The translations under genes and the position numbers were made by a program. Below, piece after piece: positions 1 through 55,691 of a stretch of 64,000 nucleotides of DNA. The stretch's first letter is position 1, and every line of letters starts with the position of its first letter. The DNA comes from Candidatus Nanopelagicales bacterium (GTDB taxonomy: Bacteria > Actinomycetota > Actinomycetes > S36-B12). The DNA is taken from assembly GCA_040399625.1 (NCBI GenBank), contig JBBARV010000002.1, positions 83,599 to 147,598 of the forward strand, in the 5' to 3' direction. The notes beneath the pieces were generated by a model, which was not told the origin of the DNA, did no database searches, and saw only the letters and a list, made by a program, of their open reading frames with translations.

Positions 1-17
1 AAACACGAGTCCCACGT

Positions 18-1094: not shown

Positions 1095-1121
1095 TGCAAT
1101 TATCCCCTAAAACACTAATGG

Positions 1122-2348: not shown

Positions 2349-3811
2349 TAGCGACCCAATTCATTCATAACCGCGCTGGCAAAGACTTCACCGCGATGGG
2401 AATAGTTCGTAAACATGTCCCAGGAAGCACACCCGGGTGCAAGCAAAACGGTGTCACCACTGACCGCCCGCTCGCTCGCGATCTGGACGGCCTCGTTCAT
2501 GGCACTAGTCTCTCGAGTGACCAGTGTGATTACTGGGACATTTGGGGCGTGTCGGGTGAGGGCGTCGGCAATTATCGGGGCATCGGTCCCCAGTAAAATT
2601 GCGGTCTTAATTCGGCCCGCATGGGCCAGCACCAGCTCGTCGAAATCCTGCCCTTTGGCCAATCCACCTGCGATCCAAATTACCGAAGAATACGAGGAAA
2701 GGGATTTGTGGGCCGCGTGTGCATTTGTCGCCTTTGAGTCATCGATATAGGTGACTCCTCCCCTATTGGCAACCAAGGCATTTCGGTGGGGAGCCGGGTT
2801 AAAATCACGGAGGCCATCACGAACGGCCGCCGGTGGCACACGATTTTCTTCACCCGAATTGATGGCACCGAATGCTCGGGCTAATGCCGCAGCAGCAAGC
2901 GCGTTCTCCGTATTGTGCTCCCCCACTGGATGAATGTCGCTTACGAGGGCTATCTCCTGGGCGTAATCCCTTCGGTTGGGAATAAATGCACGGTCCACGA
3001 GCGCGCCATCAACAACACCCAACTCACTTAGTCCAGGGATGCCGCGAGTGAAACCGACCGCACGACAACCCTCTAAAACTTCGGCAGATTCGACCATCGA
3101 CAATGTTGATTCTTCGTGGCCGTTGTATACGGCTGCATATTGGGTCCGCTCATAAATACGGGCTTTTGCTTGTGCATATTGGCTAAAATTGCCGAAGTGA
3201 TCAATATGATCCGATGCCAGGTTTAAACAGACCGACGCCAATGGACTCATGGAATGAACAAATGGCAGTTGCGGAGCGCCTACCTCGACTGCAATCACGT
3301 CAAGCTCGTCGTGCATCACTACACCCACCAATGAGTGCCCAATATTCCCCGCTGCCTCAGTACGCAGCCCAGCAGATCGCAAGATGGATTCCAACATGAG
3401 TGTTGTTGTCGTCTTACCGTTAGTACCGGTCACACACAACCAAGGAGCGCCACCACTTTTAGCGCGGATCCTCCACGCCAGTTCAAGTTCGCCCCAGATG
3501 GGGATTCCTTTAAGCTCCGCCTGTTTGTGGAACTGGTGCTGTGGCGTCAGTCCCGGTGATGTCACCACCAAGTCAAAATTCTCGCTTGGAAGCTCACCCG
3601 CACTCAAGAAAACCGATGCTCCAAGGGAACCAAGGATATTTGCTCGTTCACTCACTTCATCAGTTGATGAAGAATCAACGATACTCACCTGGGATCCCAG
3701 TTGCATGAGGGCATCCGCTGACGCAAAACCAGCAACGCCCAGACCTAAAACTGCAACGTTAAGAGATGACCAGTTTGCATCACGTGAAGTGAGCTCATCA
3801 AGATTGTGCAT
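2348..3811 (-). CDS. murD: MurD, UDP-MurNAc-L-Ala:D-Glu ligase
   Basis: Mur ligase P-loop VTGTNGKTTTT and N-terminal GLGVAGF Rossmann-like loop. The ORF track extends to 3910; I place the start at ATG 3811 (MHNLDEL...), which forms an ATGA overlap with the mraY stop. ATG 3826 is an alternative. Confidence 0.9.
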   Translation of the reverse strand: MHNLDELTSRDANWSSLNVAVLGLGVAGFASADALMQLGSQVSIVDSSSTDEVSERANILGSLGASVFLSAGELPSENFDLVVTSPGLTPQHQFHKQAELKGIPIWGELELAWRIRAKSGGAPWLCVTGTNGKTTTTLMLESILRSAGLRTEAAGNIGHSLVGVVMHDELDVIAVEVGAPQLPFVHSMSPLASVCLNLASDHIDHFGNFSQYAQAKARIYERTQYAAVYNGHEESTLSMVESAEVLEGCRAVGFTRGIPGLSELGVVDGALVDRAFIPNRRDYAQEIALVSDIHPVGEHNTENALAAAALARAFGAINSGEENRVPPAAVRDGLRDFNPAPHRNALVANRGGVTYIDDSKATNAHAAHKSLSSYSSVIWIAGGLAKGQDFDELVLAHAGRIKTAILLGTDAPIIADALTRHAPNVPVITLVTRETSAMNEAVQIASERAVSGDTVLLAPGCASWDMFTNYSHRGEVFASAVMNELGR

Positions 3812-4878
3812 CAAGCCCGAACCCATTCTGCATAAAATATAGTCAGTCCCGCACCGATACACAGACCTTGAATGATCCAAAACCTCACAACGATTTGGAT
3901 CTCGGGCCACCCCAGCATTTCAAAATGGTGATGTAGTGGTGCCATCCGGAAAATTCGCTTTCCCGTCAATTTATATGATCCGACTTGGCCAATCACGGAC
4001 AAAGTCGTGATAAGGAATAGGCCCGCAAGCAGCGGCAGCAAAAGTTCAGTGCGTGTGAGTACTGCCAGACCTGCGATTCCACCACCGAGTGCGAGGGAAC
4101 CTGTATCTCCCATAAAGATTCGAGCGGGAGAGGTGTTAAACCAAAGGAAACCAAAACTTGCACCAGCTGTAGCAGCAGCAACCATTGCTAAATCAAGTGG
4201 ATTTTGAGTGTTGTAACAAAACTGGGTGACTTCGAAGGCGCAATTCTGTCCATATTGCCAAATCGCCAGAAGCACATACGCCAAGAAACTCATAATTGCT
4301 GCGCCAACGGCCAATCCGTCAAGACCGTCTGTGAGATTTACGCCATTGGTTGTTGCTGTCACCAGGAACCACACCCATAGCAAGAAAAGTCCTAATGGCA
4401 GGACGATGCTGGTGTCGCGAACAAAGGAAATAGCCATCGATGCCGCCGTATTCCCCGTTGCATCGGGGAATTGAACCGATAAATACGCAAAGGAAAACGC
4501 TACAACCGCCTGACCAATTAGCTTTGTCCTAGCTCTGAGCCCAGTACTTCGCTGCTTGAAAATCTTTAAATAGTCGTCCGCAAAACCAACCAAGCCCAGA
4601 CCGACCATGAGGTAGAGAACGAGCAACGCTGAGATTGAAATCGGTCGCCAAGTGAATAAATGCGTGAGGAAGTAACCTCCAAGCACAGCGATGATTATGG
4701 CGAGTCCACCCATGGATGGTGTACCGCGCTTTCCTTCGTGTGCGGGATACAGTCGGCCTTCTTGTGACGCACGGATCGCTTGGGAGTACCCGTGTTTGCG
4801 CAGCAAGTTAATGAGTAAAGGTGTTCCGAGAAAAGAAATCAATGTCGCTATCGCACCCGCGATAACGACTAGCCTCAT
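3811..4878 (-). CDS. mraY: MraY, phospho-MurNAc-pentapeptide translocase
   Basis: 355-aa membrane ORF with NGVNLTDGLDGLA and DTGSLALGG motifs. 4-nt overlap with the murF stop. Confidence 0.95.
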   Translation of the reverse strand: MRLVVIAGAIATLISFLGTPLLINLLRKHGYSQAIRASQEGRLYPAHEGKRGTPSMGGLAIIIAVLGGYFLTHLFTWRPISISALLVLYLMVGLGLVGFADDYLKIFKQRSTGLRARTKLIGQAVVAFSFAYLSVQFPDATGNTAASMAISFVRDTSIVLPLGLFLLWVWFLVTATTNGVNLTDGLDGLAVGAAIMSFLAYVLLAIWQYGQNCAFEVTQFCYNTQNPLDLAMVAAATAGASFGFLWFNTSPARIFMGDTGSLALGGGIAGLAVLTRTELLLPLLAGLFLITTLSVIGQVGSYKLTGKRIFRMAPLHHHFEMLGWPEIQIVVRFWIIQGLCIGAGLTIFYAEWVRA

Positions 4879-6341
4879 GGAGCTCCCTGCTCTCGATCCG
4901 ATCCCAACCCAAAGTCTTCGCCAACATTACTTAATGAAAGCTTCAAAACTTCGCTGGCCACTCGATCAAGACCAACTGATCGCGATGCTTTCACTAAAAC
5001 AATGTCACCTGGCTTCAACTGAGCCGCCAATAGCTTCATGGCCTCATCGATGTCAGAAACCCAGGACGACTCATCACCCCATGATCCTTCGTTCGATGCT
5101 GCCAAGTGCATTACTTTGGTCGCCGCACCCACGCACACTAAGCGTGAAATATCTAGGCGTACAGCTAATCTGCCAACCGAGTCATGCGCGTCCAAGGAAT
5201 ATTCACCCAGCTCACGCATCTCACCCAAAATGGCCCAGGTGCGACGACGCGGCTCGCGAGAACCTAATTGAGCCAATGTTTTAAGTGCGGCACGCATCGA
5301 TTCAGGATTCGCGTTGTACGCATCATTGATTACCGTTATGCCATTGGCACCCTCGGTTACTTCCATTCGCCATTTACTAGTCACATTTACGTTGCTAAGA
5401 AACTCGCACGCAGTTTTAAAAGGTACTCCCACCGCAACACTTGCACTGAGTGCCGCTAACGCATTACTGACATAATGTTCACCGATTAACTTGACATGTA
5501 CCGGGTGTGCATCATCTCGGTAATTCGCGAGAAACCGAGTTGTTCCATCAGGATCAATACTCACACCGCTGGCATTAACATCGCTGCCCTCCGTCTCACC
5601 AAAGGTCAGCAGAGAGCAATAGAGTCCTTCGCTCATCTTGGCTACAAATGGATCGTCTTTATTAAGGATCGCAACTCCATTAGCCGGCAGGGCGCGCACC
5701 AACTCGCCCTTAGCTATCGCAATGTTTTCCACATTGCCAAGCAATTCGATGTGCGCTGATCCAACGTTGAGAACGACCCCGATATGAGGTTCTGCGATCT
5801 CAGCGAGAGTGGTGATCTGACCGAGTCCGCGCATACCCATCTCTAAAACGAGAAATTGAGTATCAACTTCAGCGCTGAGGATAGTGAGTGGTAATCCCAC
5901 TTCGGTATTGAACGAACCGGGTGGGGAAACGCATTGGCCGTACTGTCCCAAAATCCCAGCGATTAAATCTTTTGTTGAAGTTTTCCCACTTGAGCCCGTA
6001 ATGCCGATAACCCGAGCCTTGAGCACGTTCAGGCGAACCCAGTGAGCAATTTCACCCAGAGCAATTAAGGGATCAGAAACTCTCAGTAGTGGAAGACCCA
6101 CTGGTTCAGAAAAATTAGATTGCGTTGCGACAATAGCCAGAGATGCTCCGGCTGATTGAACGTCTACCAAAAAATCGTGTCCATCAACTTTCTCGCCAGC
6201 GAGCGCGACAAATATTCCATTTTTGATCGGGCTTCGCGAGTCGACATAGAATCCAGGAATGCTGAGAACTTGCTCGTGATCACAGCCGGTGAGAACTCCT
6301 CCCGTAATGTCTGCCAGTTGTTTTCCGGTGAAATCAATCAT
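4875..6341 (-). CDS. murF: MurF, UDP-MurNAc-tripeptide:D-Ala-D-Ala ligase
   Basis: 488-aa ORF with Mur ligase P-loop ITGSSGKTSTKD. Sits between murE and mraY. Confidence 0.9.
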   Translation of the reverse strand: MIDFTGKQLADITGGVLTGCDHEQVLSIPGFYVDSRSPIKNGIFVALAGEKVDGHDFLVDVQSAGASLAIVATQSNFSEPVGLPLLRVSDPLIALGEIAHWVRLNVLKARVIGITGSSGKTSTKDLIAGILGQYGQCVSPPGSFNTEVGLPLTILSAEVDTQFLVLEMGMRGLGQITTLAEIAEPHIGVVLNVGSAHIELLGNVENIAIAKGELVRALPANGVAILNKDDPFVAKMSEGLYCSLLTFGETEGSDVNASGVSIDPDGTTRFLANYRDDAHPVHVKLIGEHYVSNALAALSASVAVGVPFKTACEFLSNVNVTSKWRMEVTEGANGITVINDAYNANPESMRAALKTLAQLGSREPRRRTWAILGEMRELGEYSLDAHDSVGRLAVRLDISRLVCVGAATKVMHLAASNEGSWGDESSWVSDIDEAMKLLAAQLKPGDIVLVKASRSVGLDRVASEVLKLSLSNVGEDFGLGSDREQGAP

Positions 6342-7839
6342 GTGAACCCTCTTCCCTTAACAGTCCAGCAACGACATCGACGTCACTAAATTCAATAATT
6401 TGGCCCATGATCTCCTGACCTCGCTCATGGCCTTTGCCCAGGATCGCCACTACATCGTGGCCGCCGGCTAATTCCAGTGCTCGAGCAATTGCATTACGCC
6501 GATCTCCTATCTCGATCACTTGCGACCCGGGGGATGTCGCGGCACCCTCAAGAATTTGTTGACGAATTTGGGCCGGATCCTCCGAGCGCGGATTGTCATC
6601 TGTGACGATCAAGATGTCGGACAGACCTGCTCCCACACTTCCCATGGTCGCGCGCTTGCTGGCATCACGATCTCCACCAGCCCCTAGGACAGTAATTATT
6701 CGCCCACCGAATTCGCTTTTAAGCCCGGTTAAAAATTCCGAAACAGACTCCGGTGAATGGGCGTAGTCGACAAAGAATGAAGCACCGCCGCGGGTGCCGA
6801 CCAGTTCGCCTCTACCCGCAACGGTTGCCCGGCAGATTGCTTTCACGACATTATGGCCACGAATTCCCACGTGGTCCAAAACCGACAGCGCCAACGCGGC
6901 ATTAAGTGCATTAATTTTTCCTGGTAAAGCCAGCGCATCCAATCCGATTTCATCACGTGGACCGCTAATTATCCAAGAAGAAACCGATGAAGAACCAGGT
7001 GACCGCCTTAGCTTCCAAGTAGGCGCGCCTACCGTGCCCACAGACTCATAGGGAATCTCAACCTTTTCGCAGAGCTCTACCCCCCACGGGCCATCCGTGC
7101 ATATGAGCGCGAATCGCGCAAATTTGGGCGCAAAAAGTTGTGCTTTTGCCGCGAAATACTCGGGCATTGAACTGTGGTAATCAAGGTGATCATGCGAGAG
7201 ATTCGTGAATGCAACGCAGTCAAATTTCAATCCATTAACTCGATGCTCAGACAAGGCGATGCTAGAGACTTCCATAGCAATAATTTTGACACCGGCAGCT
7301 TTCATCCGTGCAAGTGTGCGAAAAAGATCCGGCGCCTCAGGAGTTGTGCGAATACTGACAATTTCTTCGTCATTAATCAAGGTTGCAAGAGTTCCAACCA
7401 GCCCAGCACTTATGCCAACCGCTCGTGCAGCCTGGTAAATCATGCTGGTGGTGGTGCTCTTCCCATTGGTGCCGGTGACTCCAATCATGATCATGTCGGA
7501 TGCAGGATCCCCATAAACCAAAGCACACACCTCACCAAGATGAACCCGCGGATCGCTCACCACAAGCACGGGAATGTTGCGCGAAAGATCAGAGTCTTCA
7601 ATAAGTCGAACTCCAGAAGAATCGGTCAAAATTGCAGATGCTCCACGTTGAATTGCCTGCCCACTAAAGCGAGCCCCATGAACAGATCGACCGGGAAGGG
7701 CGGCAAATAACTCACCCTCTTGGATCGTGGTGGAATCCAATGAGACACCAGTGACCACAACACCGGAGTCCCCCGAGAGTTGGCCACCAATAAGTGAAGC
7801 AATCTCGACAACTGATGTCGAAGTCACGTTAGCCTCCAA
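6334..7839 (-). CDS. murE: MurE, UDP-MurNAc-L-Ala-D-Glu:diamino acid ligase
   Basis: 501-aa ORF with P-loop GVTGTNGKSTTT and C-terminal VTDDNPRSEDP (DNPR-type substrate motif). Confidence 0.9.
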   Translation of the reverse strand: MEANVTSTSVVEIASLIGGQLSGDSGVVVTGVSLDSTTIQEGELFAALPGRSVHGARFSGQAIQRGASAILTDSSGVRLIEDSDLSRNIPVLVVSDPRVHLGEVCALVYGDPASDMIMIGVTGTNGKSTTTSMIYQAARAVGISAGLVGTLATLINDEEIVSIRTTPEAPDLFRTLARMKAAGVKIIAMEVSSIALSEHRVNGLKFDCVAFTNLSHDHLDYHSSMPEYFAAKAQLFAPKFARFALICTDGPWGVELCEKVEIPYESVGTVGAPTWKLRRSPGSSSVSSWIISGPRDEIGLDALALPGKINALNAALALSVLDHVGIRGHNVVKAICRATVAGRGELVGTRGGASFFVDYAHSPESVSEFLTGLKSEFGGRIITVLGAGGDRDASKRATMGSVGAGLSDILIVTDDNPRSEDPAQIRQQILEGAATSPGSQVIEIGDRRNAIARALELAGGHDVVAILGKGHERGQEIMGQIIEFSDVDVVAGLLREEGSHD

Positions 7840-9601
7840 AAGTCAAGGCAAGTTTAGGTGCTTTTGAACCTGTAGGCGGGATCTCTAGTGCCCCAAGTGC
7901 ATAACTTGCGACCTTTTTGAAAACTGGAGCGCCTAATTCACCGCCGTAACGGCCACTTTGCGGTTGAGATAGGAAGACGGCGACTACAAGTCGCGGATTG
8001 TCCGCCGGAACCATGCCGGCAAATGAAGCAATAACTTGATTGTTGTAACCACCCGTCCGTTCGTCAACGACTTGGGCAGTGCCCGTCTTGCCACCAACAC
8101 GGTAGCCGGGTATTTTGGCATTCGTTCCAGTGCCACCCTCACCAACGGCACTCTCAAGCATTGCCCTTACTTGAATTGCCGTCTCGCGCGAAACAACACG
8201 CGTTGTAACCGGTGCCTCCGGCTCTTCAACACTTCCGTCTGAGTGAACAATTTTTTTAACTAAGGACGGTTCAACGCGCAATCCGTCATTTGCAATAGTT
8301 GAGAAGACGCTCGCTACCTGCACAGCGTTGACGCTGAGTCCTTGACCGAAAGCAATTGTAGGGAATGACGTAGGGGACCAATCTTCATATTCGGGGACAA
8401 ATCCACTGGTTTCTCCCGGAAATCCCAGCCCGGTTGGCTGACCGATCCCAAATTTCTTTAAATATTTGGAAAGCTTTTTCCCGCCGATCCGTTCGGCAGC
8501 CAAGATCGTTCCAATGTTACTGGACTTTGCCATTACGCCACTTAGAGTCAAATTGATATTTCCATGCGGGGTTGAATCACGGAAATCTTTGTCACCACGC
8601 GGTAGGAAACTTGGGACTTTAATGGGAGTATAAGGAGTTGCGGCGCCTTCATTGATTACCGCGGCCAGAGTCATCACCTTGCTTGTCGAGCCCGGTTCAA
8701 ATGCAGAAGTTAGAGGCCTGTTATTAAGGTGTTTTTGAGGACTTTGAGTTGGAAAATTAGGGTCAAAAGTAGGTGCCGTCGCCAAAGCCAAAATTTGTCC
8801 ACTCTGTGGATCCATCACAACAACGGTTCCGTCAATTGCTCCCGAATTTTGTACCGCGACAGAGATTTCTTTTTGGGCAAAGTATTGAATGTCACGATCA
8901 ATTGTGAGCTCAATGTCAACACCAGGTTGCGCGTCTACTCGCACGGAAGATCCAGTGGGTATTGCCCTACCTCCCGGCCCACGCTCATAAGTTGATTCTC
9001 CAGGCTGGCCGCTGAGTTGGTCATTAAAAGCGTATTCGTACCCGCCCAAACCAGAGCCCTGACCACCCACAAAACCAATGACATTCGCCGCCAGGTCACC
9101 CGAAGGGTAAATTCGCCGTGTCGTATTTTCACTAAAAACTCCGGGTAGCCGCAACGCCGAGATTTGTTCCCAAGTTTGTGGAGTGACTTCTTTGGCCAAG
9201 TACATGAAGCGGCGGTCCCCCGTCAGTCGCTCGGCCAAAATATCGGCGTCTGCACCAAGAATCGGGGATAGGGCTTGTGCTACAGCAACCGGATCTGTGA
9301 CCATTGTTTGATCGGCTGTCACATTCTTGGCGTCAACGGTTATAGCTAAAGGTTCACCCGATGAATCTAAAATCGATCCACGCTCAGCTGGTAATTCAAC
9401 GGTTTTGAGTCTTTGGTCCAGCGCCGCAGACGCAAGCTTGTCGCCTTGGACGGCCTGCAGGTCAACAAGTCGACCTGCAAAAATCATGAGAACAAGAGTA
9501 GATACCAAGATAAGGGCAGTTCCCCGCTTGCGGGTATTACCCAAGTTGATTCTTGCCGTGCCGTAATCACTGAAGTTACGTCCGCCCCAATTCGTGCTCA
9601 T
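7829..9601 (-). CDS. ftsI: Class B penicillin-binding protein (FtsI/PbpB-type transpeptidase)
   Basis: 590-aa ORF with an N-terminal TM helix and transpeptidase motifs STSK, SSN and KTGT, in the dcw position. Confidence 0.9.
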   Translation of the reverse strand: MSTNWGGRNFSDYGTARINLGNTRKRGTALILVSTLVLMIFAGRLVDLQAVQGDKLASAALDQRLKTVELPAERGSILDSSGEPLAITVDAKNVTADQTMVTDPVAVAQALSPILGADADILAERLTGDRRFMYLAKEVTPQTWEQISALRLPGVFSENTTRRIYPSGDLAANVIGFVGGQGSGLGGYEYAFNDQLSGQPGESTYERGPGGRAIPTGSSVRVDAQPGVDIELTIDRDIQYFAQKEISVAVQNSGAIDGTVVVMDPQSGQILALATAPTFDPNFPTQSPQKHLNNRPLTSAFEPGSTSKVMTLAAVINEGAATPYTPIKVPSFLPRGDKDFRDSTPHGNINLTLSGVMAKSSNIGTILAAERIGGKKLSKYLKKFGIGQPTGLGFPGETSGFVPEYEDWSPTSFPTIAFGQGLSVNAVQVASVFSTIANDGLRVEPSLVKKIVHSDGSVEEPEAPVTTRVVSRETAIQVRAMLESAVGEGGTGTNAKIPGYRVGGKTGTAQVVDERTGGYNNQVIASFAGMVPADNPRLVVAVFLSQPQSGRYGGELGAPVFKKVASYALGALEIPPTGSKAPKLALTFGG

Positions 9602-9631
9602 GGCTGCTCAACCATTAACTTCACTTACGAC

Positions 9632-10267
9632 CTACTCGACCACGTTTGAATCAAGTGAGAGACCTTCGGAAATTACCTGAGAATTAACCAGTGTTGGTTC
9701 GGACCACTCACCCGTGGCCCTGCCCGCGTCCGCTGCCGCCGGATCGTAGTTCTCCCCCAAGGCAGGTGGCAGCCCTGAATTTGACTGTGCCTCAACAGCC
9801 TCGCCAACCGTTGCATCTGCAGGGGTTGCAACAGGAACACCAGGTGCAGGTTTCGGTTTGCCAAGAATCTTTCCACTGGGGATCTGGATAAACGCAGGGG
9901 TCGAACTGGGAACCATTCCGAGGTTGCGCGCCTTTTCCTCTAAGACTGTTGGCGCCGCGAGTGCGGCAACGCTTTCAATCAAAGTCGCTTCGGTCCGACT
10001 GAGTTCATCCTGTGTGGATCTCAGTTCACTCAGTGTGAAAGCCCCTTCGGCCATAGTCGTATTGAGCAGGAGCATGCCACAAAGGCCAACGCCTAAAATG
10101 CTCGCAAGAACAATCACGAACATGCCACGACTTGCCTTGCGGACTCGAATGGGTGCCACCAAACGCAAGTTTTCTCGGGTACGCCTGCGCACTCCGCGTG
10201 TTGCGTACTCGGTAACAGATTCACTTGACTGATTGAGTGAATGATCCAGTTGCGGGGCAGCGCTCAT
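9632..10267 (-). CDS. FtsL-like septal membrane protein (positional equivalent of Rv2164c)
   Basis: 211 aa with a single TM helix ([20 protein letters not shown]), then a short coiled-coil-like segment and a Pro/Ala-rich tail. 4-nt overlap with the rsmH stop. Assigned by position only. Confidence 0.55.
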
Positions 10268-11250
10268 GCAGCAACCCCCTCTCTCTTTTCTGACAAATCC
10301 TGAGTACGAATTCGCTCGGCCGCTCGAAGTCGAACTGAAGCTGAACGAGGATTCTGAGCAATCTCCTGTTCAGTTGCTTTTTCTGAACTTCGCGTCAATA
10401 GCCTCAACTCAGGCTTAGCTGCATCAGGGATGACCGGTAGGTCATGCGGGACATTCGCCACACTGCGCTGGGTGAATATCCGCTTAACGATTTTGTCTTC
10501 GAGTGACTGGTACGACATTGCCACGACCCGCCCACCCAACGTTAATGAATCAATCGCGCGCGGGATTGCACGTTCAAGAACGGTGAGCTCGGAATTCACT
10601 TCGATTCGCAGAGCTTGGAAGGTTCGTTTAGCAGGATTGCCTCCGGTGCGACGTGCAGCTGCTGGAATCGCATCCCTAATTAAGTCAACGAGACGTGCTG
10701 AATGATCAAATGGCTCGGCCTTGCGTTCGCGGACTACCCTTTCAACTATCCGGGTCGCAAATTTTTCATCACCGTAACTGCGTAAAATTCTTACTAGTTG
10801 TCCTGGCTCATAAGTGTTTAACACTTCGGCTGCAGTAATTCCGCATGATTGATCCATGCGCATGTCAAGAAAAGTGTCCACCGAATAGGAGAATCCGCGC
10901 TCGGGTTCATCAAGTTGCATACTGGAAACTCCGAGATCAAATAAAATTCCCTGCGCCCCAGAAAGGTTGTTTTCGGCGAGCACCTCAGGAATCTGGTCGT
11001 AGACAGCATGAACAAAGATGACACGCGAGCCAAAGGGTGCGAGTCTGTGAGTTGATAAATCAATCGCACTGAGATCACGGTCAAGACCAATGACGGTTAG
11101 TTCTGGCCAAGTGCTAAGGGCCAACTCGCTATGCCCACCATGACCCAGTGTTGCATCGATGAGCACTGCATTGGGTTGATCAAGTGCCGGAGCCAACAAC
11201 GCCAAAACCCGGTCCGCAAGGACCGGCGTATGACGGGGCTCGATTGACAT
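10264..11250 (-). CDS. rsmH: RsmH (MraW), 16S rRNA m4C1402 methyltransferase
   Basis: 328 aa with HTPVL...[13 protein letters not shown]-binding signature. Confidence 0.93.
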
Positions 11251-11255
11251 GTGCC

Positions 11256-11399
11256 TCAGCCCCAGGACCCGACGAGGATAGACAAGAAATAGACCAGACT
11301 GCCGGTGGCAATTCCGGCCGCAACAACCGATGCTCCGGTGCGAACTCCACTGGGAATCAGGCCAGCCTGATTGTGGAGATACTCGTTAATGGTGCTCAT
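11256..11399 (-). CDS. Small (47 aa) putative membrane protein between mraZ and rsmH
   Basis: ORF track 11256..11444; ATG at 11399 gives [47 protein letters not shown] with one C-terminal TM helix. Its stop lies 5 nt before the rsmH ATG. No family recognised. Confidence 0.4.
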
Positions 11400-11485
11400 C
11401 ACTACTTCTTTCCCTCGTGGAACACGATTCGCGGTCGGGTTCAATCCTTTTTTCTGAAGTGCCGTTCTTGGTCAATCAGGTCTCC

Positions 11486-11552
11486 GCCCGCTAGCTCCAA
11501 CTCTCGCCATGTTGCCTGTAGCGGGCCCTGACATCGGGGAAGTGATGTCAGG
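11486..11552 (-). ncRNA. Candidate structured RNA element in the mraZ-rsmH spacer (location of the actinobacterial mraW motif)
   Basis: Two abutting stem-loops. GCCCGCTA (11486-11493) pairs with TAGCGGGC (11519-11526). CCTGACATC (11527-11535) pairs with GATGTCAGG (11544-11552). Identity with the Rfam mraW motif is not verified. Confidence 0.3.
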
Positions 11553-11590
11553 ATCAAAAAGCGGGTAGAGACCTCATTGGCCAATTCGCC

Positions 11591-12022
11591 TTAAAAGATT
11601 CCGGGTATTACCTCCTCGCTCAAAGAGGAAAAGCCTGCTTCTTGACCCGCGAGGTATTCCTCCCACGTGGGTGCATTCCAAATCTCAAGGGTGCTGCCAT
11701 TACCTACGACGACCACATCGCGATCTAGGTCGGCGTAGGAACGAAGCTCGGCGGGGACCATGACGCGACCTTGACGATCGGGAATTTCGTCGACCGCACC
11801 AGAGAACAGGACCCGCAAATAAGCACGAACGCTGGAATCAGAACGCGAGGCCACACTCAGTCGCTCCGCATAGATGGCAAACTCCGCGCTCGGCCACACC
11901 ACAATCGACCGTTCTTGGCCACGAGTGAACACCAGTCCGGCCGCCAGCCCCTCCCGATATTTGGCCGGAAGTACCAGACGACCCTTCTCATCAAGTCGCG
12001 GAGATTGGGTACCAAGAAACAT
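11591..12022 (-). CDS. mraZ: MraZ, dcw-cluster transcriptional regulator
   Basis: MFLGTQSPRLDEKGRLVLPAKYR..., with the duplicated DxxGR motif (DEKGRLVLP, DRQGRVMVP). Start placed at ATG 12022; the ORF track begins at GTG 12031. Confidence 0.93.
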   Translation of the reverse strand: MFLGTQSPRLDEKGRLVLPAKYREGLAAGLVFTRGQERSIVVWPSAEFAIYAERLSVASRSDSSVRAYLRVLFSGAVDEIPDRQGRVMVPAELRSYADLDRDVVVVGNGSTLEIWNAPTWEEYLAGQEAGFSSLSEEVIPGIF

Positions 12023-20818: not shown

Positions 20819-22057
20819 TTATTGGCCACTAAGGGTCTCTGGTGAGCCAGAAACTGTTCGGGCCGGACGCACCGCCCCAGGACCAAACTTGTCGCGCAAA
20901 GTGTCTATTGCGAGTTCTGCATCACGGCGACCATGCTCAGGCTCACCAAAAAGTAGTTGATCGGGTGCTTCGTTGGCTGCCAGGAGGCCGTCAACCTTCA
21001 CCCCAACGAGCCGAATCCGCACCCGCTGCAATCCAAGTGCTTCATAGAGCTTCCAGACGGTTGCGTAAATCTCATGGGATAAATCGGTATAGGTACCAGT
21101 TTTGGAACGAGTGATTGTGGTGAAGTCAGCAAATCTCAGTTTCACCGTCACCGTCTTGCCTTTATATCCGGCCCTACGAAGCCGAGCCGCAACCTTGTCC
21201 GAGAGCGCGGTGAGTTCGGCACGGATTACCGTGGGATCATCAACGTCATTACTGAAGGTGTGTTCGTTACTGACACTTTTTTCCACTTCATGTGGCACGA
21301 CTGAACGAGGATCCCTGCCCCAGGCGAGTTCATGAAGGTGTGTTCCGCTCTGGCCAAGTGCCCGGTTCAGGGTTTGCACCGGAGTATTTGCAATATCTGC
21401 GACAGTCTGTAAACCAAGACGGACCAGAGCTTCTTCTGTTTTCTCTCCCACCCCCCACAATGCACCGATGGGAAGTGGGTGCAGAAAGTCAATTACTCGA
21501 TCTGCGGGGATCAGCAGTAGCCCGTCAGGTTTAGCTCTTGTTGAAGCGAGTTTTGCGACAAATTTTGTGCTGGCTACACCGACAGAACAGGTAATCCCCT
21601 GCTCGTCTGCGACCCGAGCTCGAATGAGTTCGGCAATGGTGAGTGGATTGGAAAGCCGACGAATGGCTCCCGAAACATCAAGGAATGCTTCATCGAGGCT
21701 TAACGGTTCAACGAGTGGGGTAACGGATTCAAATAGTGCCATGACATTACGGCTTACCTCAGAATATTTTTCGTGATGTGGTGTGAGGAAAGTTGCTTCG
21801 GGTGCAATTCTTCGAGCGCGTGAAATAGGCATTGCTGAGTGAACGCCAAGTGCGCGTGCTTCATAAGTTGCGGTGAGAACAACCCCGCGATTCCCCTGGG
21901 CCGCTATAACAACGGGTGTTCCTTTAAGCTCGGGGTAGTCACGTAATTCAACTGCAGCATAAAAAGCATCCATGTCAATATGCAAAATATTGCAACCTGA
22001 ATCATTGGTGCCAAAATCAAGTTTTCCAGTTTGGCGGCGCACCTGACTCCGACTCAT
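20819..22057 (-). CDS. dinB: Y-family DNA polymerase IV (DinB), catalytic residues intact
   Basis: 412 aa with ILHIDMDAFYAAVE and SLDEAFLDVS catalytic motifs. AAGGAG SD lies 5 nt upstream of the ATG. Third gene of the damage-inducible cassette. Confidence 0.9.
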   Translation of the reverse strand: MSRSQVRRQTGKLDFGTNDSGCNILHIDMDAFYAAVELRDYPELKGTPVVIAAQGNRGVVLTATYEARALGVHSAMPISRARRIAPEATFLTPHHEKYSEVSRNVMALFESVTPLVEPLSLDEAFLDVSGAIRRLSNPLTIAELIRARVADEQGITCSVGVASTKFVAKLASTRAKPDGLLLIPADRVIDFLHPLPIGALWGVGEKTEEALVRLGLQTVADIANTPVQTLNRALGQSGTHLHELAWGRDPRSVVPHEVEKSVSNEHTFSNDVDDPTVIRAELTALSDKVAARLRRAGYKGKTVTVKLRFADFTTITRSKTGTYTDLSHEIYATVWKLYEALGLQRVRIRLVGVKVDGLLAANEAPDQLLFGEPEHGRRDAELAIDTLRDKFGPGAVRPARTVSGSPETLSGQ

Positions 22058-22100: not shown

Positions 22101-25100
22101 TCACCATCCGGGTGTCCCGGGGCTTCTATGCCACAACTTACTTGGCGGGGTCGCGACTGGGGTCTTAATATCAGCATAAGCAGACTGCTTAAACCCGCTT
22201 CCATGAATGCGGGCAGTTCGTTTATGCGGTGTATCACGATCAGGAGCTTGGTGCATAAGCACCAGCTCGTTGACCGCCGCAATTCCCCCATCAAGCCACA
22301 ACCGCCTAACACCTCCCAGCTCCCAGCAGCCGGTTGCGCGCAATGAGACCCCCCGTGGCCCGGTTCGACGGATTTCACCACGAACTAACAGAATCCACGA
22401 ATTAAAAAGATCGTGGGCGTAAGGACCTTGAGCGTCTTCAAAAAAAGTTGCATCAACCGGGCCTGTTGAGTCGTCGAGGGTAAGAAAAACCACTCGCTTA
22501 CCGGTACGAATCGGTGGCATTTGGGTTGCAACTTTGACTCCAGCAATGAAGATGATTTCCTTGGATCGACATTTCAGCAGATTCCGTGATTGAACGATGT
22601 TCAGGCCTTTTATAACGTCTGAATAAAAGTCCATGACATGACCGCTGACATCAAGGCCTAAAACCTCTAACTCAGATTTCACCCGTTGCGCACTTGTCAT
22701 TTCGGGTAAACCTGATGCAATAACACCACTGTCACTTTCTGTGACGTCAAAACTCAGTTGCGCCACCGGGGTGCTTTTCCCACTTTTCCCGTGACTGCGA
22801 TCAAGATCAGCAATTTGAAGAAGCAGGTCCCGTCGCGTGATCTGCCCACGCATTTTTCGCTCGGTGAAACCGTAGAGGCTGTCAAAAGCGCCAGCCACCA
22901 CTAAGTTTTCGGCGACCGGGCGGGAGGGGCGTGCACGCAACCATAAATCAGAAAGTGAGGAAAACGGTTGGCCCGTGATGAGCCGTTCAATCTCAGCCTC
23001 AGAGATTTCCTTTAAGTCGGTAAAAGAAACCCGAATACCAAAACTCAAATCAGGGAGTTGCTCAAGGTGAAATACGTGATTTGACGCATTAACGTCAAGA
23101 CCCAAAATGGTGACCCCGAAATTTCGAGCATCATCGAGGATTAATCGTTTGGGGTACATACCGGGGTCATGGGTGAGCAGCCCACAGTAAAAAGCTTCCG
23201 GATGGTGGGTTTTTAACCACGCACTTTGATAGGTGGGCAGTGCAAAAGCAGCCGCATGCGCTTTACAGAATCCAAATGAGGCAAATGCTCGCAAAATTTC
23301 CCAGACCCGGTCAATATGGTCGATGTCATAGCCGCGCGCAAGTGCTGCCGGGTAAAACCACACTCGTACGTCGTTTTGACCCTGTGGGGATCCCATGGCC
23401 CGCCGCGATTCATCAGCTTCAGCGAGTGAACAGCCAGAAAAGATACTGAAGATCCGCAAGACTTGTTCATGAAAAACCACAACTCCATAGGTTTCGGTCA
23501 ATGCGGAGGCAAGGTCAGGGTGTGGAAATACTGGAGCATTCCACCCTTGTCGAGCCCTCAAAAATGGCGTGATCATGTCTGACTTCACTGGACCTGGGCG
23601 AAATAATGAGATGTCAATGATCAGGTCATTAAAAGTTTCCGGAGCAAACTTTCCCACCAACTCACGCTGACCTGGTGACTCAATTTGAAAACACCCCAGA
23701 GTTTTAGTTGATTGAATCAGCTCAAATGTTGCTTTGTCATCAAGTGTGGTTCCGTCAATTACCGGTCGCTCCCCCGTAACCCGTTCTGCTTCATTGAGCG
23801 CGTGCGCCATTGCCGACTGCATTCGCACACCCAGTACATCAAGTTTGAGTAATCCCATGTGTTCAACGTCATCTTTATCAAAATGGGACATGGGAAACCC
23901 TGCTGCACTACTTTCTACAGGAGTTCGATCAAGCAGTGTTAAATCCGAAAGCACAACCCCGCATGGATGCATTGCAATATGTCTGGGTAGCCCGTCAATT
24001 GCTTCAACCAAGTCAAGGAAGTTATCAATTTCACCGGTTGCGGCTAATTTGCCAAATGATGAGTGTCTCAGTTCGGGTAGGTCAACCAGCGCAGACTTCA
24101 CATTGCGAGCGCGGATATGCGGAAATGCTTTAGCAAAAGCGTCAATATCTGAGGCTGGTAAACCAAATGCGGCACCAACGTCTCGGATTGCTGAACGGAC
24201 GCGGTAGGTCTCCATCATCGAAACTGTGGCAATGCGCTCAGTTCCAAATTTGTCAAAGATCCACTGGTAGATATCCAGCCTGCGTTCGGACTCAACATCA
24301 ATGTCAATGTCGGGGAGCACCCGACGAAGGGGCGAGAGAAACCTTTCCATGAGCAAGTTTTGGGCAATGGGATCAACACCTGAAATTCCCAGTAGATAGT
24401 TGACCAAACTCCCAGCTCCGGAACCACGTGCGGCAACACGCACTCCCTTTTCTTTCACCATGTCAACAACGTGAGCAACGGTAAGAAAGTAACCGGAGAA
24501 ACCTAATTGAGTGATGGTTCGCATTTCTGCTTCAAGCCGGTGGGATGCAATGGATCGGTCATGTGAATGCGAGTAACGCTGTGGCAATTGATCTTCGCAG
24601 CGACGTAAAAGGATGTGGTTCGCCTCGCGTTCTGGTTCAGCAACCGGACGATTCACAAGAATGTCAAGTTCGGGAACGAACACGTCACCGAGACCAAGGT
24701 CACGTCTCGGATCTAGTGCACAATATTCAGCTAAGTGTTGGGTGTCACGCAATAATTTATGTACATCACGCTCACCGCCTTGTTGGCAAATCTCTCGGGC
24801 AACGTGATGCATCTGTTCAGCATCTTTCAAAAATCCTTGTGGGCTATTGCCCGCAATATGGCGTGAATCGAGAGGGACCAACAACCGGGCTGAATCAAGG
24901 AGGTCAGCGACTTTCGCCTGTTCGGGACTGACATAACGAACAGCATTTGTTAAGACGGCGGGCAGTGACACCTCCCGCGACCAGGACAGTAATCGAGCAG
25001 CTTTTGCTGTTGATGAGCCTGACTTTGATTTTTCTAAATGGGAAGTGACCGCGAGACCGAGATAGCGATCAAAGATTGCCCGCCAAGGGCGAAGCAGTGC

Positions 25101-25607
25101 ATCAGCCTGATGCGACCTTCCAGTGAGTAACGCTTGTCCAACTTCTGACTCTGAAGTAAGTAACGCAACTATTCCCGTGTGATGTTGGGCTAACGCCTGC
25201 CAGGAAAGGACCGGATCCCCACGTTGTGCATGTGCTGCGGAGACCAACCGACACAACGATGCCCAGCCCTGCGCCCCGGTGGCTAACAGAATTACCCGAG
25301 GCTTTGTTTCATCAATCCACTGGCCACCGTGTGCCGGTGTTCTGCGGGCACCACTCCCTGAAACTACTTTTGATTCAGTTCTCTCAACTGCAAGATCAAC
25401 TCCAATTACCGGAGAAATTCCATTTCGCGAGCAAGCGCGAGCCCATTGAACCGCGCCATAAAGTCCATTACGGTCAGTAAGACCAATAATTTTTTGCCCA
25501 ACGGCAGCGGCATGATCAACAATGGTGTCGGGTCGAGATACCCCGTATTGCAGTGAGTAGCTCGATGCAACCTGTAAATGGGCAAACGAATCTGATGAAA
25601 CTCCCAC
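22101..25607 (-). CDS. dnaE: DnaE-family (Pol III alpha-like, C-family) DNA polymerase with degenerate PHP motif; probable specialised DnaE2/ImuC-like copy
   Basis: 1168 aa with a PHP-like N-terminus, pol III alpha palm/fingers, and an OB fold near aa 985-1060 (IIFIAGVKVATQMPP...). GTG start lies 10 nt after the upstream gene. DnaE1 versus DnaE2 cannot be settled by eye. Confidence 0.85.
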   Translation of the reverse strand: MGVSSDSFAHLQVASSYSLQYGVSRPDTIVDHAAAVGQKIIGLTDRNGLYGAVQWARACSRNGISPVIGVDLAVERTESKVVSGSGARRTPAHGGQWIDETKPRVILLATGAQGWASLCRLVSAAHAQRGDPVLSWQALAQHHTGIVALLTSESEVGQALLTGRSHQADALLRPWRAIFDRYLGLAVTSHLEKSKSGSSTAKAARLLSWSREVSLPAVLTNAVRYVSPEQAKVADLLDSARLLVPLDSRHIAGNSPQGFLKDAEQMHHVAREICQQGGERDVHKLLRDTQHLAEYCALDPRRDLGLGDVFVPELDILVNRPVAEPEREANHILLRRCEDQLPQRYSHSHDRSIASHRLEAEMRTITQLGFSGYFLTVAHVVDMVKEKGVRVAARGSGAGSLVNYLLGISGVDPIAQNLLMERFLSPLRRVLPDIDIDVESERRLDIYQWIFDKFGTERIATVSMMETYRVRSAIRDVGAAFGLPASDIDAFAKAFPHIRARNVKSALVDLPELRHSSFGKLAATGEIDNFLDLVEAIDGLPRHIAMHPCGVVLSDLTLLDRTPVESSAAGFPMSHFDKDDVEHMGLLKLDVLGVRMQSAMAHALNEAERVTGERPVIDGTTLDDKATFELIQSTKTLGCFQIESPGQRELVGKFAPETFNDLIIDISLFRPGPVKSDMITPFLRARQGWNAPVFPHPDLASALTETYGVVVFHEQVLRIFSIFSGCSLAEADESRRAMGSPQGQNDVRVWFYPAALARGYDIDHIDRVWEILRAFASFGFCKAHAAAFALPTYQSAWLKTHHPEAFYCGLLTHDPGMYPKRLILDDARNFGVTILGLDVNASNHVFHLEQLPDLSFGIRVSFTDLKEISEAEIERLITGQPFSSLSDLWLRARPSRPVAENLVVAGAFDSLYGFTERKMRGQITRRDLLLQIADLDRSHGKSGKSTPVAQLSFDVTESDSGVIASGLPEMTSAQRVKSELEVLGLDVSGHVMDFYSDVIKGLNIVQSRNLLKCRSKEIIFIAGVKVATQMPPIRTGKRVVFLTLDDSTGPVDATFFEDAQGPYAHDLFNSWILLVRGEIRRTGPRGVSLRATGCWELGGVRRLWLDGGIAAVNELVLMHQAPDRDTPHKRTARIHGSGFKQSAYADIKTPVATPPSKLWHRSPGTPGW

Positions 25608-25617
25608 GGCTATTCGA

Positions 25618-26094
25618 TCAGCTCACGCGTAAAAATTGAGAAGGTGAATCACAACTGTAGGTTTCTAAAGACAAACGCCCCTGCACAAGTGCATCAAGGG
25701 ATGCGGCCACTTCGAAGATGAATCGCTGTGAGTCACGAACGAGGTCGTCAGCTTCCCGTGAGGTAACACAGGGAATACCTGCTTGTGCCGATGCGCGTTT
25801 GTGCGCACCTGCGGCAAAGAAAATTGCCCACTCACCAAATTCGGGGGCGACCTCGGTGAGTACTTCCCACGCGCTACGAATGCGCTGTCTCGTTGGGCCT
25901 CCATTTGGGCCCCCATGTGGGTTCAGGGCCACTTGGGCACGGGCGGCCAGAACTGCCGCAGCGGCGCGTAATGCACCAAGGTGTGCTGCCGCATAACGCT
26001 CATGTGGAGTGTGTGCCGCTATGGCTTCCTGCAAACTTCCCTGGGCGCAATGCAGTAGCTCTAACGCTGGGCGGCGCGTGAACTTTCCCACCAT
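25618..26094 (-). CDS. SAV_6107-like HEPN-family small helical protein
   Basis: The 158-aa version starts at ATG 26094 with GAAAGGA 8 nt upstream. ERYAAAHLGALRAAAAVLAARA, EWAIFFAAGAHKRASAQAG and SREADDLVRDSQRF resemble the actinobacterial 'SAV_6107 family HEPN' proteins, as I recall them. The ORF track extends to 26349, which lies upstream of the predicted TSS. Confidence 0.6.
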   Translation of the reverse strand: MVGKFTRRPALELLHCAQGSLQEAIAAHTPHERYAAAHLGALRAAAAVLAARAQVALNPHGGPNGGPTRQRIRSAWEVLTEVAPEFGEWAIFFAAGAHKRASAQAGIPCVTSREADDLVRDSQRFIFEVAASLDALVQGRLSLETYSCDSPSQFLRVS

Positions 26095-26174
26095 GGGAGA
26101 TCCTTTCGGGTTGATCGACAAAATTTTGGTGCCAAAAAGACACCGACTTCTCTCGACCCACCCGCACACAATCC

Positions 26175-26211
26175 AGTCACCGGGGTCGGGGTCGAATCGA
26201 CCCCGGTGACT
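26175..26211. repeat. Perfect 13-bp inverted repeat with a nested 17-bp palindrome in the cassette leader
   Basis: AGTCACCGGGGTC (26175-26187) pairs with GACCCCGGTGACT (26199-26211). The inner palindrome GGGGTCGAATCGACCCC spans 26188-26204. Confidence 0.9.
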
Positions 26212-26301
26212 GTGATCATGTGCCGGTACTGCTGGTACTAACTGACCCGACCCGCGCCTGGCCGCGAATCCGGGCCCGGGAGGCAGTTCAAACAGGTTAA
26301 A

Positions 26302-26317
26302 TCGAACACCTGTTCGA
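26302..26317. promoter_or_regulatory. LexA (SOS) box, perfect TCGAAC-N4-GTTCGA
   Basis: TCGAACACCTGTTCGA read directly. This matches the actinobacterial/Gram-positive LexA operator consensus. Confidence 0.8.
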
Positions 26318-26326
26318 ACAGATCCA

Positions 26327-26348
26327 AAGATAGACCGGACCACTGACA
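26327..26348 (-). promoter_or_regulatory. RecA-NDp / PafBC-type DNA-damage promoter motif
   Basis: The minus strand reads TGTCAGTG-gtccggtc-TATCTT, matching tTGTCRgtg-N8-TAnnnT. The LexA box starts 9 nt downstream of the -10 hexamer. Confidence 0.65.
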
Positions 26349-26444
26349 TCCGTCAACCCCACCCCAAGATTCACTTCATAAACCGCCCAAATCCCCCTAT
26401 GCCACGGGGCCGTGGCCAAACTGACCCAGGACTAATGTTGATCC

Positions 26445-26924
26445 ATGCCCGATACCGAACAGCAGTCTGTTATTCATGTCCGCAAAACCCTGAAACTCCT
26501 TGGTGTGAGGGGTGAGGTTCGCCGCCTTGATGACAGCGCCAGAACTGCAAAAGAGGCGGCTGATGCTTTAGAAATTGAAGTTGGACAGATTGCAAGTTCA
26601 CTTATTTTTCTTGCCGATGGAAACCCAATTCTCGTCATGGCTTCGGGTAAGCACCGGGTAAATACCAACAGTGTTGCCGCAGCGCTAGAGGCTGATGAAG
26701 TTACCAAGGCAACAGCGGATGATGTTCGTGCAGCCACAGGTTATGCAATTGGTGGGGTTGCACCAATCGGTCACCCCGAACAATTACCGACAATTGTCGA
26801 CATCTCACTCAGCCAATATGACGAAGTCTGGGCAGCCGCTGGTCACCCGCATTATGTTTTCCCAACCACCTACGACGAACTACTGCGCATTACTGGTGGG
26901 CACGCCGCAGAAATCAGTGTCTGA
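26445..26924 (+). CDS. YbaK/EbsC-family aminoacyl-tRNA editing (trans-deacylase) domain protein
   Basis: 159 aa with YbaK-like sequence (…AKEAADALEIEVGQIASSLIFLADGNPILVMASGKHRVN…GGVAPIGH). TAATGT lies 6 nt upstream of the ATG, which suggests a leaderless transcript. Confidence 0.75.
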   Translation: MPDTEQQSVIHVRKTLKLLGVRGEVRRLDDSARTAKEAADALEIEVGQIASSLIFLADGNPILVMASGKHRVNTNSVAAALEADEVTKATADDVRAATGYAIGGVAPIGHPEQLPTIVDISLSQYDEVWAAAGHPHYVFPTTYDELLRITGGHAAEISV

Positions 26925-55082: not shown

Positions 55083-55280
55083 CTAACCCACCTGGGATTT
55101 CGGGGTAACCAGCCGAAGGGGTGGAACCAGACCCGAACGGGCCAAAACCCCAATGGCTGCAAGGTGATCTTCTGCTACCTCCGGCGCCCGCAAAAATTCT
55201 GGCTCCCCTAGCAACACCGTGACAATGCAATCGCCACAAGCCGCGCCAGCTACCACACATGTACCGCAATCAATAACCAT
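55083..55280 (-). CDS. Small Cys4 protein (C-x2-C-x6-C-x2-C)
   Basis: 65 aa beginning MVIDCGTCVVAGAACGDCIVTVLLG.... Same strand as the endopeptidase gene and upstream of it. No family name known to me. Confidence 0.45.
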   Translation of the reverse strand: MVIDCGTCVVAGAACGDCIVTVLLGEPEFLRAPEVAEDHLAAIGVLARSGLVPPLRLVTPKSQVG

Positions 55281-55328
55281 GCCAACAGGCTAAATGCCCC
55301 CACTGACATCGAGAAATATCAGAACTTG

Positions 55329-55669: not shown

Positions 55670-55691
55670 TGTCAGGGCTTAGCGTTAGTTT
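55670..55691 (+). promoter_or_regulatory. RecA-NDp/PafBC-like promoter motif upstream of the DEDD-GIY-YIG gene
   Basis: TGTCAGGG-cttagcgt-TAGTTT versus consensus tTGTCRgtg-N8-TAnnnT. The -10 ends 6 nt before GTG 55698, which suggests a leaderless mRNA. Confidence 0.45.

Follow-up and report, generated by a model that had tools for sequence, protein, structure and literature searches.

A likely composite LexA/PafBC promoter and a structured leader at a translesion-polymerase operon of a Candidatus Nanopelagicales bacterium

Error-prone DNA polymerases create the mutations that lie behind drug resistance and adaptation, so the timing of their switch-on matters. In mycobacteria, dual control by LexA and PafBC is already known for recA, imuA′B, dnaE2 and ruvC; the translesion genes imuA′B and dnaE2 are co-regulated by the two systems (Adefisayo et al. 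2021, PMC8682763). The LexA consensus of M. tuberculosis is TCGAAC(N4)GTTCGA (PMC3381160), and the mapped transcription starts of several LexA-regulated genes of this species lie inside the SOS box. The PafBC motif derived from chromatin immunoprecipitation (ChIP) is tGTCgg(N10)tA(N3)T, and published PafBC promoters lack a −35 consensus (PMC8635444). Here we describe minus-strand positions 26356 to 26302 of a 64-kb stretch of DNA from Candidatus Nanopelagicales bacterium (contig JBBARV010000002.1; approximately 52% GC), which is called the window throughout. We consider it likely that this region forms one composite promoter, gated by LexA and equipped with a PafBC activator site, for a translesion-polymerase operon that encodes a HEPN protein, a DnaE-family polymerase and DNA polymerase IV (Pol IV). 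The sequence shows directly the promoter elements and how they are spaced; comparison and annotation show how widely they are conserved and which genes they serve.

Three features are new: the single-start composite architecture with both a −35 and a −26 element; its phylum-wide conservation before a DUF6504/HEPN/DnaE-like/DinB operon that lacks imuA′B; and a structured leader RNA. The last is more novel than the promoter and is the most worth following up.

Promoter layout and the closest described systems

Read directly, the minus strand from 26356 to 26302 is TTGACG-ga-TGTCAGTG-gtccggtc-TATCTT-tggatctgt-TCGAACAGGTGTTCGA. A first-pass annotation, made from the letters of the window, had described 26348 to 26302 as a RecA-NDp/PafBC-type promoter abutting a perfect LexA box. 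Its minus-strand sequence, coordinates and spacings are correct on direct reading, the match to the consensus TGTCRG-N10-TAnnnT is exact, and the operator TCGAAC-N4-GTTCGA at 26302–26317 is the sole perfect copy in the window and equals the published LexA consensus. The −35 hexamer and the structured leader were both overlooked at that stage. The promoter elements are as follows.

26351–26356, minus strand: −35-like hexamer TTGACG, 18 nt upstream of the −10 hexamer TATCTT
26341–26348, minus strand: PafBC-type −26 element TGTCAGTG, with the core TGTCAG at 26343–26348 (direct reading and consensus match)
26327–26332, minus strand: −10 hexamer TATCTT, of the form TAnnnT (direct reading and promoter scan)
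26302–26317, no strand assigned: perfect LexA operator TCGAACAGGTGTTCGA, beginning 9 nt past the −10 hexamer

In a consensus scan of positions 25500–26700 the only sigma-70-like promoter was the minus-strand TTGACG-18 nt-TATCTT pair. The predicted transcription start falls at approximately 26319–26323 and is covered by the LexA operator.

Among the described systems, the mycobacterial imuA′-imuB/dnaE2 genes are alike in being error-prone polymerase genes that combine a PafBC site of the TGTCGG type with a consensus SOS box, and the logic of the mycobacterial mutasome, mutagenic synthesis only after damage, is the same (PMC8682763). The arrangement differs. M. tuberculosis imuA′ has two separate promoters, with 166 nt between the PafBC-dependent start and the LexA site downstream of it (PMC8682763), whereas the window has one shared −10 hexamer and one start. 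The gene content differs as well, for the window cassette lacks imuA′ and imuB and encodes a HEPN protein together with a divergent DnaE-family polymerase and a DinB whose catalytic motifs are intact. Mycobacterial recA is likewise one gene under both circuits, but it has two promoters (P1 for PafBC and P2 for LexA). Mycobacterial ruvC has its LexA site within the RecA-NDp promoter, a likeness that need not extend to the exact architecture.

The PafBC hybrid promoters, which operate by sigma adaptation (Mueller et al. 2021, PMC8635444), share with the window the −26 element with its GTC core and the distance of 10 nt from the end of TGTCRG to TAnnnT; they have no −35 element, whereas the promoter family of the window carries TTGACG 2–3 nt upstream of the −26 element. 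The LexA-regulated dnaE2-dinP operon of Streptomyces venezuelae is similar in that a DnaE-family polymerase is followed by Pol IV and that LexA boxes and strong damage induction are present; the mycobacterial PafBC motif was reported not to be found in that organism (Stratton et al. 2022, PMC9380542).

From what is established about the two regulators, the promoter would be expected to work as follows. In the undamaged cell a LexA dimer seated on the start site (approximately +2 to +17) would block RNA polymerase, and upon damage the RecA-stimulated self-cleavage of LexA would free the operator. The housekeeping SigA holoenzyme could then take either of two routes, initiating directly through the −35/−10 pair or with PafBC, activated by single-stranded DNA, bound at −26 (sigma adaptation). 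By these steps LexA would thus act as the gate and PafBC as the amplifier on one start site, and PafBC would be unable to bypass LexA here because both act on that same site. The transcript would begin with a structured leader of approximately 225 nt and not with the N-terminus of the 243-residue open reading frame (ORF) that had been called from position 26349.

Conservation of the promoter and the case for PafBC

A search with the HEPN protein found 3385 homologues. Eighty loci with HEPN_SAV_6107 homologues (L001 to L080) were taken from one-genome-per-species contigs and, with the window, give 81 upstream regions; the set includes Nanopelagicales, Propionibacteriaceae, Nocardioides/Marmoricola, Micromonosporaceae, Frankiales, Micrococcales, Dermatophilaceae and Streptomyces. 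A LexA box with at most one mismatch is present in 66 of the 81. Among these box-bearing loci, TAnnnT occurs 7–12 nt upstream of the box in 59, TGTC occurs 29–34 nt upstream of the box start in 49, and a TTGAC/TTGCx hexamer occurs in 63, located 2–3 nt upstream of TGTC and at the canonical 17–19 nt from the −10. The claim that the operator of the window begins 9 nt after the −10 hexamer and lies over the predicted start gains from this comparison, since the gap itself is confirmed and a similar geometry (8–10 nt) is seen in 57 of the 59 orthologous promoters. The proposal that the promoter drives the minus-strand cassette is also supported: it faces the polymerase genes, and the order and spacing of its elements are kept before orthologous operons across many orders.

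When 57 unique promoters were aligned on the −10, positions −16 to −13 read T in 47, G in 53, T in 50 and C in 54. TGTC is therefore fixed 12 nt before the TA, which is the PafBC register; the distance is exactly 12 nt in approximately 50 of the 57. The rest of the spacer is mostly free to vary, the exception being a near-invariant GG at −4/−3. The conserved GTC core corresponds to the triplet that PafB reads in the structure determined by cryo-electron microscopy (PMC8635444). The architecture is kept in Nanopelagicales, Propionibacteriales, Micromonosporales, Frankiales, Micrococcales and other orders, and the conservation of only these blocks over such a range argues for function.

A different arrangement was seen at five Streptomyces loci (L008, L031, L055, L068 and L070), where TGTCAGTG-N8-CAC(G/C)AT lies upstream of the HEPN_SAV_6107 gene. 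Unlike the window, these loci have the TGTCAGTG element with no LexA box and no adjacent polymerase, none being encoded within 6 kb downstream of the HEPN_SAV_6107 gene.

In the reverse test, metagenome contigs were scanned for exact matches to TGTCRG-N10-TANNNT-N8-10-TCGAAC-N4-GTTCGA, which returned at least 120 stretches, 108 of them with usable downstream sequence. A DUF6504, HEPN_SAV_6107, DnaE-like polymerase or DinB gene lies downstream in 88 of the 108 usable matches listed, and the remaining 20 include recognisable damage-response genes. At five loci of 44–60% GC (L090, L127, L128, L143 and L195) the composite promoter, including its TTGAC −35, precedes a gene of approximately 100 codons that is divergent from lexA and whose product, judged by eye with no family scan, resembles a LysM-domain membrane protein. 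The pair resembles the lexA/Rv2719c arrangement of M. tuberculosis. At a sixth locus (L126), with little downstream sequence, lexA flanks the composite pattern. The presence of lexA beside composite promoters on metagenome contigs shows only that similar lineages have lexA. Elsewhere the composite precedes proteins of 420–500 residues that by eye resemble the DNA-damage-inducible HNH/13E12 family (L088, L163, L168 and L196), an Rv2191-like exonuclease (L142) and an imuA′-like gene (L193). The metagenome matches thus show a composite that recurs at damage-response genes of actinobacteria and that is, first and foremost, a signature of the DUF6504/HEPN/DnaE-like/DinB operon.

Within the window, the perfect LexA box occurs once in 64 kb and in none of 100 dinucleotide-preserving shuffles; at up to two mismatches the pattern shows no enrichment in the 64 kb (2 found vs. 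3.3 expected). TGTCRGTG-N8-TANNNT is present in two perfect and five one-mismatch copies against 1.46 expected, a total of seven that none of 100 shuffles reaches, and the ChIP-derived form TGTCRG-N10-TANNNT is present in four copies against 0.47 expected. TGTCRGTG-like matches at 27404, 33742, 36623 and 42124 all lie inside coding regions and were set aside as chance. The composite is held to be beyond chance because it is conserved in other genomes, and not because of the statistics within the window. Two further PafBC-type motifs of the window are intergenic; they are divergent, and both are without a −35 element.

55670–55691, plus strand: PafBC-type motif TGTCAGGG-N8-TAGTTT, ending at the GTG start region of a DEDD exonuclease/GIY-YIG gene
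55287–55308, minus strand: PafBC-type motif TGTCAGTG-N8-TAGCCT, 7 nt before the ATG of a Cys-rich ORF of 65 residues

The first of these stands before a gene (55692–57512) for a 606-residue DEDD exonuclease and GIY-YIG protein of the Rv2191 type (NCBIfam PRK07883, above cut-off), found in M. tuberculosis-like synteny with ripC, trpD, ctaE and qcrC. The Cys-rich ORF (55083–55280) is without a family match and appears to be leaderless. The first-pass annotation had made its reading depend on recurrence of the motifs at other damage genes of the same genome; this is borne out in part, by the PafBC-type motif at the Rv2191-type gene, in a scan that covered the 64 kb only. Among the papers available, a literature search found nothing showing Rv2191 under PafBC control; the gene may be induced independently of RecA.

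Several observations weigh against a role for PafBC or against the composite reading as a whole. The window promoter has TTGACG 18 nt from its −10, so it is not a typical −35-less PafBC promoter, and RNA polymerase could perhaps do without PafBC at this site. TGTC is missing from 17 of the 66 box-bearing loci, about a quarter. The loci share ancestry, and their counts are for this reason not independent events. Neither lexA, recA nor pafBC was seen in the 64-kb window, nor lexA or recA in L001–L080, pafB and pafC having been judged from ORF lists with no dedicated search. For lexA, tblastn of the window and L001–L080 with an E. coli LexA sequence gave no match; the query works, because it matched lexA on six metagenome loci.

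A rival explanation is a plain LexA-repressed promoter of the housekeeping sigma factor in which the spacer TGTCAG is not used by PafBC and is either a vestige or the site of another factor. We regard this as unlikely, and the departure from the −35-less definition is the main reason for retaining it. The −35 hexamer is nearly universal in the family (63 of 66 loci) and absent from characterised PafBC promoters (PMC8635444); most of the loci that keep the LexA box without TGTC retain a −35-like hexamer and TAnnnT; and the ultraviolet induction of M. tuberculosis dnaE2 depends on SOS and not on PafBC (PMC8682763). Such a promoter would nevertheless have to accommodate a TGTC held at the exact PafBC distance from the −10 in unique promoters of distant orders while the neighbouring spacer varies, a GTC triplet that is the very part read by PafB (PMC8635444), and the fact that the same motif heads the two −35-less promoters of the window.

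We therefore favor the composite promoter with a working PafBC site, at the level of confidence given at the outset. The locus then indicates that mutagenic polymerase genes bear LexA and PafBC signals outside the mycobacteria as well, in a single-promoter design that is old, exact in its spacing and common to many orders of actinobacteria, among them freshwater plankton with streamlined genomes. With its paired −35 and −26 elements the promoter is a natural case for testing whether one −10 can serve both sigma adaptation and direct recognition of a −35.

Start of the HEPN gene and the leader RNA

The ATG of the 243-residue ORF, at 26349, adjoins the −26 element and is located upstream of any plausible transcription start. 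The first-pass annotation had argued on this ground that the model was over-extended, which is supported by three further lines of evidence. The Pfam PF18726 domain occupies residues 109–214 of the 243. The 158-residue protein starting at the ATG at 26094 has a 100% identical entry, from an NCBI source, in the protein collection. The sequence upstream of that ATG is conserved as nucleotides, as the relatives in the following paragraph reveal. The start signals are these.

26092–26107, minus strand: Shine-Dalgarno sequence GAAAGGA (26101–26107) and, after a 6-nt gap, the likely true start ATG (26092–26094)

The ATG at 26094 and its surroundings are conserved in L001–L003. Alignment of the window with these three loci gave 427 columns with a mean column identity of 87%, compared with identities down to 78% for the HEPN protein, and from the LexA box to the ATG there are long stretches of invariant nucleotides. 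Two 1-nt indels in L003 alter the reading frame and produce a wholly different upstream peptide from nearly identical DNA. Invariant DNA together with an altered peptide means that the upstream stretch is conserved as nucleic acid and not as protein. As a real protein the 243-residue ORF is ruled out by the start of the Pfam domain, the 158-residue NCBI protein and the L003 frameshift.

The same data refute the idea that the two motifs are accidental neighbours within the 5′ part of a genuine 243-residue coding sequence, to which we assign almost no probability. The frame is indeed open from 26349, gene callers gave long forms (232–244 residues) in several relatives, and loose matches to the LexA pattern are no more frequent in the window than expected. 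Chance does not, however, account for a perfect box that no shuffle reproduced, for a composite conserved across orders that marks the DUF6504/HEPN/DnaE-like/DinB operon in metagenomes, or for L003, where the peptide changes wholly and the DNA hardly at all; nor does a long coding sequence fit a domain that begins only at residue 109 and a Shine-Dalgarno sequence placed before the ATG at 26094.

Between the promoter and this ATG lies the predicted leader, with the following features.

26095–26322, minus strand: predicted 5′ leader of approximately 225 nt, non-coding and highly structured (conservation and fold)
26261–26271, minus strand: GGATTCGCGGC motif, a predicted hairpin loop, recurring past the LexA box in distant leaders
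26165–26220, minus strand: long hairpin with the loop ATTCGACCC (family core TCGACCC); covariance model R1, 45.2 bits, E 1.4e-4
26152–26159, minus strand: GGGTCGAG, a complement of the hairpin loop that may form a pseudoknot with it or serve as a repeated binding site
26118–26144, minus strand: short terminator-like hairpin GGTGTC-UUUUU-GGCACC with the U-rich tail AAAAUUUUGU, approximately 25 nt before the Shine-Dalgarno sequence

The predicted fold of the leader has an energy of −124.9 kcal/mol (z = −7.1 vs. shuffles). With regard to the first predicted hairpin, GGATTCGC was found by eye, with no covariation test, in 17 distant leaders, at 12–69 nt past the LexA box, and hairpins with TTCGCGG or CCGCGAA loops, related to GGATTCGCGGC, were likewise noted by eye in Micromonosporaceae leaders. 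The long hairpin was modeled from 32 diverse leaders. The resulting covariance model R1 has one sense-strand leader match in 41 of the 81 sources; elsewhere in 910 kb, both strands included, there are two marginal matches (E 0.8–0.9). Pairing is retained in 87% of cells, compared with 54% in shuffled alignments and 35–56% with the partners slid, and all 11 pairs show double changes (151 cells vs. 52), figures that are to be read with the caveat that the alignment was fitted to the model and that the seed hairpins were picked by loop motif and stability. GGGTCGA, the complement of the loop core, occurs within 150 nt downstream of the hairpin as 26 copies in 18 of 39 loci (one to three each) against 1.8 expected, and upstream there are none. 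The pairing of the terminator-like hairpin is, on reading of the alignment, kept in L003 through changes on both arms, and this hairpin may be an attenuator.

The only length-variable part of the leader, at 26229–26248 (minus strand), consists of a variable number of 9-nt units, AGTACCAGY, between two conserved hairpins; here the window is 9 nt shorter than L001, and L002 and L003 are 18 nt shorter.

Rfam 15 gave only chance matches to microRNA-type hairpins in the window (E up to 10) and no match at gathering score in the leaders of 10 other loci; a literature search for a dnaE2-associated RNA motif found nothing. The TCGACCC-loop hairpin was ruled out as a dispersed repeat or a terminator, since loci that have it carry a single copy, which invariably lies in the leader in the sense orientation and is not immediately followed by a U tail. 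RNAs of the ANTAR type are tandem hexaloop hairpins, and they do not fit because the leader loops measure 9–11 nt.

The leader probably adds post-transcriptional control. More tentatively, and with somewhat less than even confidence, we suggest that it could be an undescribed phylum-wide cis-regulatory RNA made up of the covarying TCGACCC hairpin, one to three downstream GGGTCGA(G) copies and TTCGCGG-type hairpins, and that it might form a third, post-transcriptional layer over LexA and PafBC with the co-encoded HEPN or DUF6504 protein as a partner.

It has also to be asked whether the leader carries the main control. In that event the response to damage would be exerted after initiation, by attenuation or at translation, and the promoter motifs would contribute little. 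Conservation is higher in the leader than in the coding sequence, the predicted fold is far more stable than the folds of shuffles, the long hairpin covaries around an invariant loop across the phylum, and the leader contains a hairpin of terminator type. All of this is compatible with control at the promoter, the elements of which are at least as widespread (66 vs. 41 of the 81 loci), and the leader is not known to have a ligand or binding partner; we consider leader-dominated control very improbable. Beside the composite promoter, the leader RNA and the DUF6504 and HEPN_SAV_6107 genes, both uncharacterised, provide concrete targets in the search for further control of mutagenesis.

Operon genes and neighbours

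The genes served by the promoter are as follows.

25618–26094, minus strand: SAV_6107-type HEPN protein, 158 residues, first gene of the operon (Pfam PF18726, E 9.7e-32)
22101–25607, minus strand: DnaE-family DNA polymerase, 1168 residues, accessory and dnaE2-like (TIGR00594 passed)
20819–22057, minus strand: DNA polymerase IV (DinB), 412 residues, with the motifs DMDAFYA and SLDEAF intact (NCBIfam PRK02406, 363 bits vs. a cut-off of 256)

In a species-level genome collection, the closest relatives of the window are metagenome-assembled genomes of Candidatus Nanopelagicales, at 94, 88 and 65% protein identity, and an "Actinobacteria bacterium" at 78%. The DnaE-family polymerase scores below the curated NCBIfam cut-offs both for the error-prone model (636 vs. 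939) and for the model of the DNA polymerase III (Pol III) alpha subunit (658 vs. 1002). It gives 413 bits to E. coli Pol III alpha and only 310–320 bits to M. tuberculosis DnaE1, a pattern that rules out the replicative DnaE1. The protein is therefore not an orthologue of actinobacterial DnaE1 but a divergent accessory enzyme. Micromonosporaceae loci encode, approximately 4 kb past the HEPN gene, a DnaE2 that is approximately 30% identical to the window polymerase; polymerases 50–95% identical to the latter follow the HEPN gene in many loci.

The operon of the window, HEPN_SAV_6107 followed by the DnaE-family polymerase and then DinB, contains neither imuA′ nor imuB. In most lineages (L004–L080) a DUF6504 gene (PF20114) is found between the leader and the HEPN gene; the clade formed by the window and L001–L003 has lost it, so the leader abuts the HEPN gene. 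A literature search on DUF6504 found nothing. In Micromonosporaceae imuA′-like genes come after the HEPN gene (e.g., L060), and in Propionibacteriaceae and Nocardioides the HEPN gene is followed by dinB only. The Plantactinospora locus L060 also carries, at 9952–10094 on its minus strand, a cyclic di-AMP riboswitch (RF00379, 81.7 bits) that is unrelated to the promoter.

On the other side of the promoter is a divergent gene.

26433–26924, plus strand: −10 hexamer TAATGT (26433–26438) and, 6 nt further on, the gene for a YbaK-type aminoacyl-tRNA editing protein (26445–26924; Pfam PF04073, E 7.7e-29)

This −10 had been reported at the ATG of the ybaK-like gene and is present there, 6 nt before the ATG at 26445; the gene is probably leaderless. 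Among L001–L003 the TAATGT hexamer is conserved only in L001.

In a wider view, judged by eye from the ORF translations, the gene order of window positions 1–12000 and 40000–60600 parallels that of M. tuberculosis from the Rv2150s to Rv2194, the parallel genes being the dcw cluster, a pknL-like kinase, aroG, a ripC-like gene, the Rv2191-like gene, trpD, ctaE and qcrC. Carotenoid genes (30–39 kb) and the polymerase operon are inserted within this M. tuberculosis-like order.

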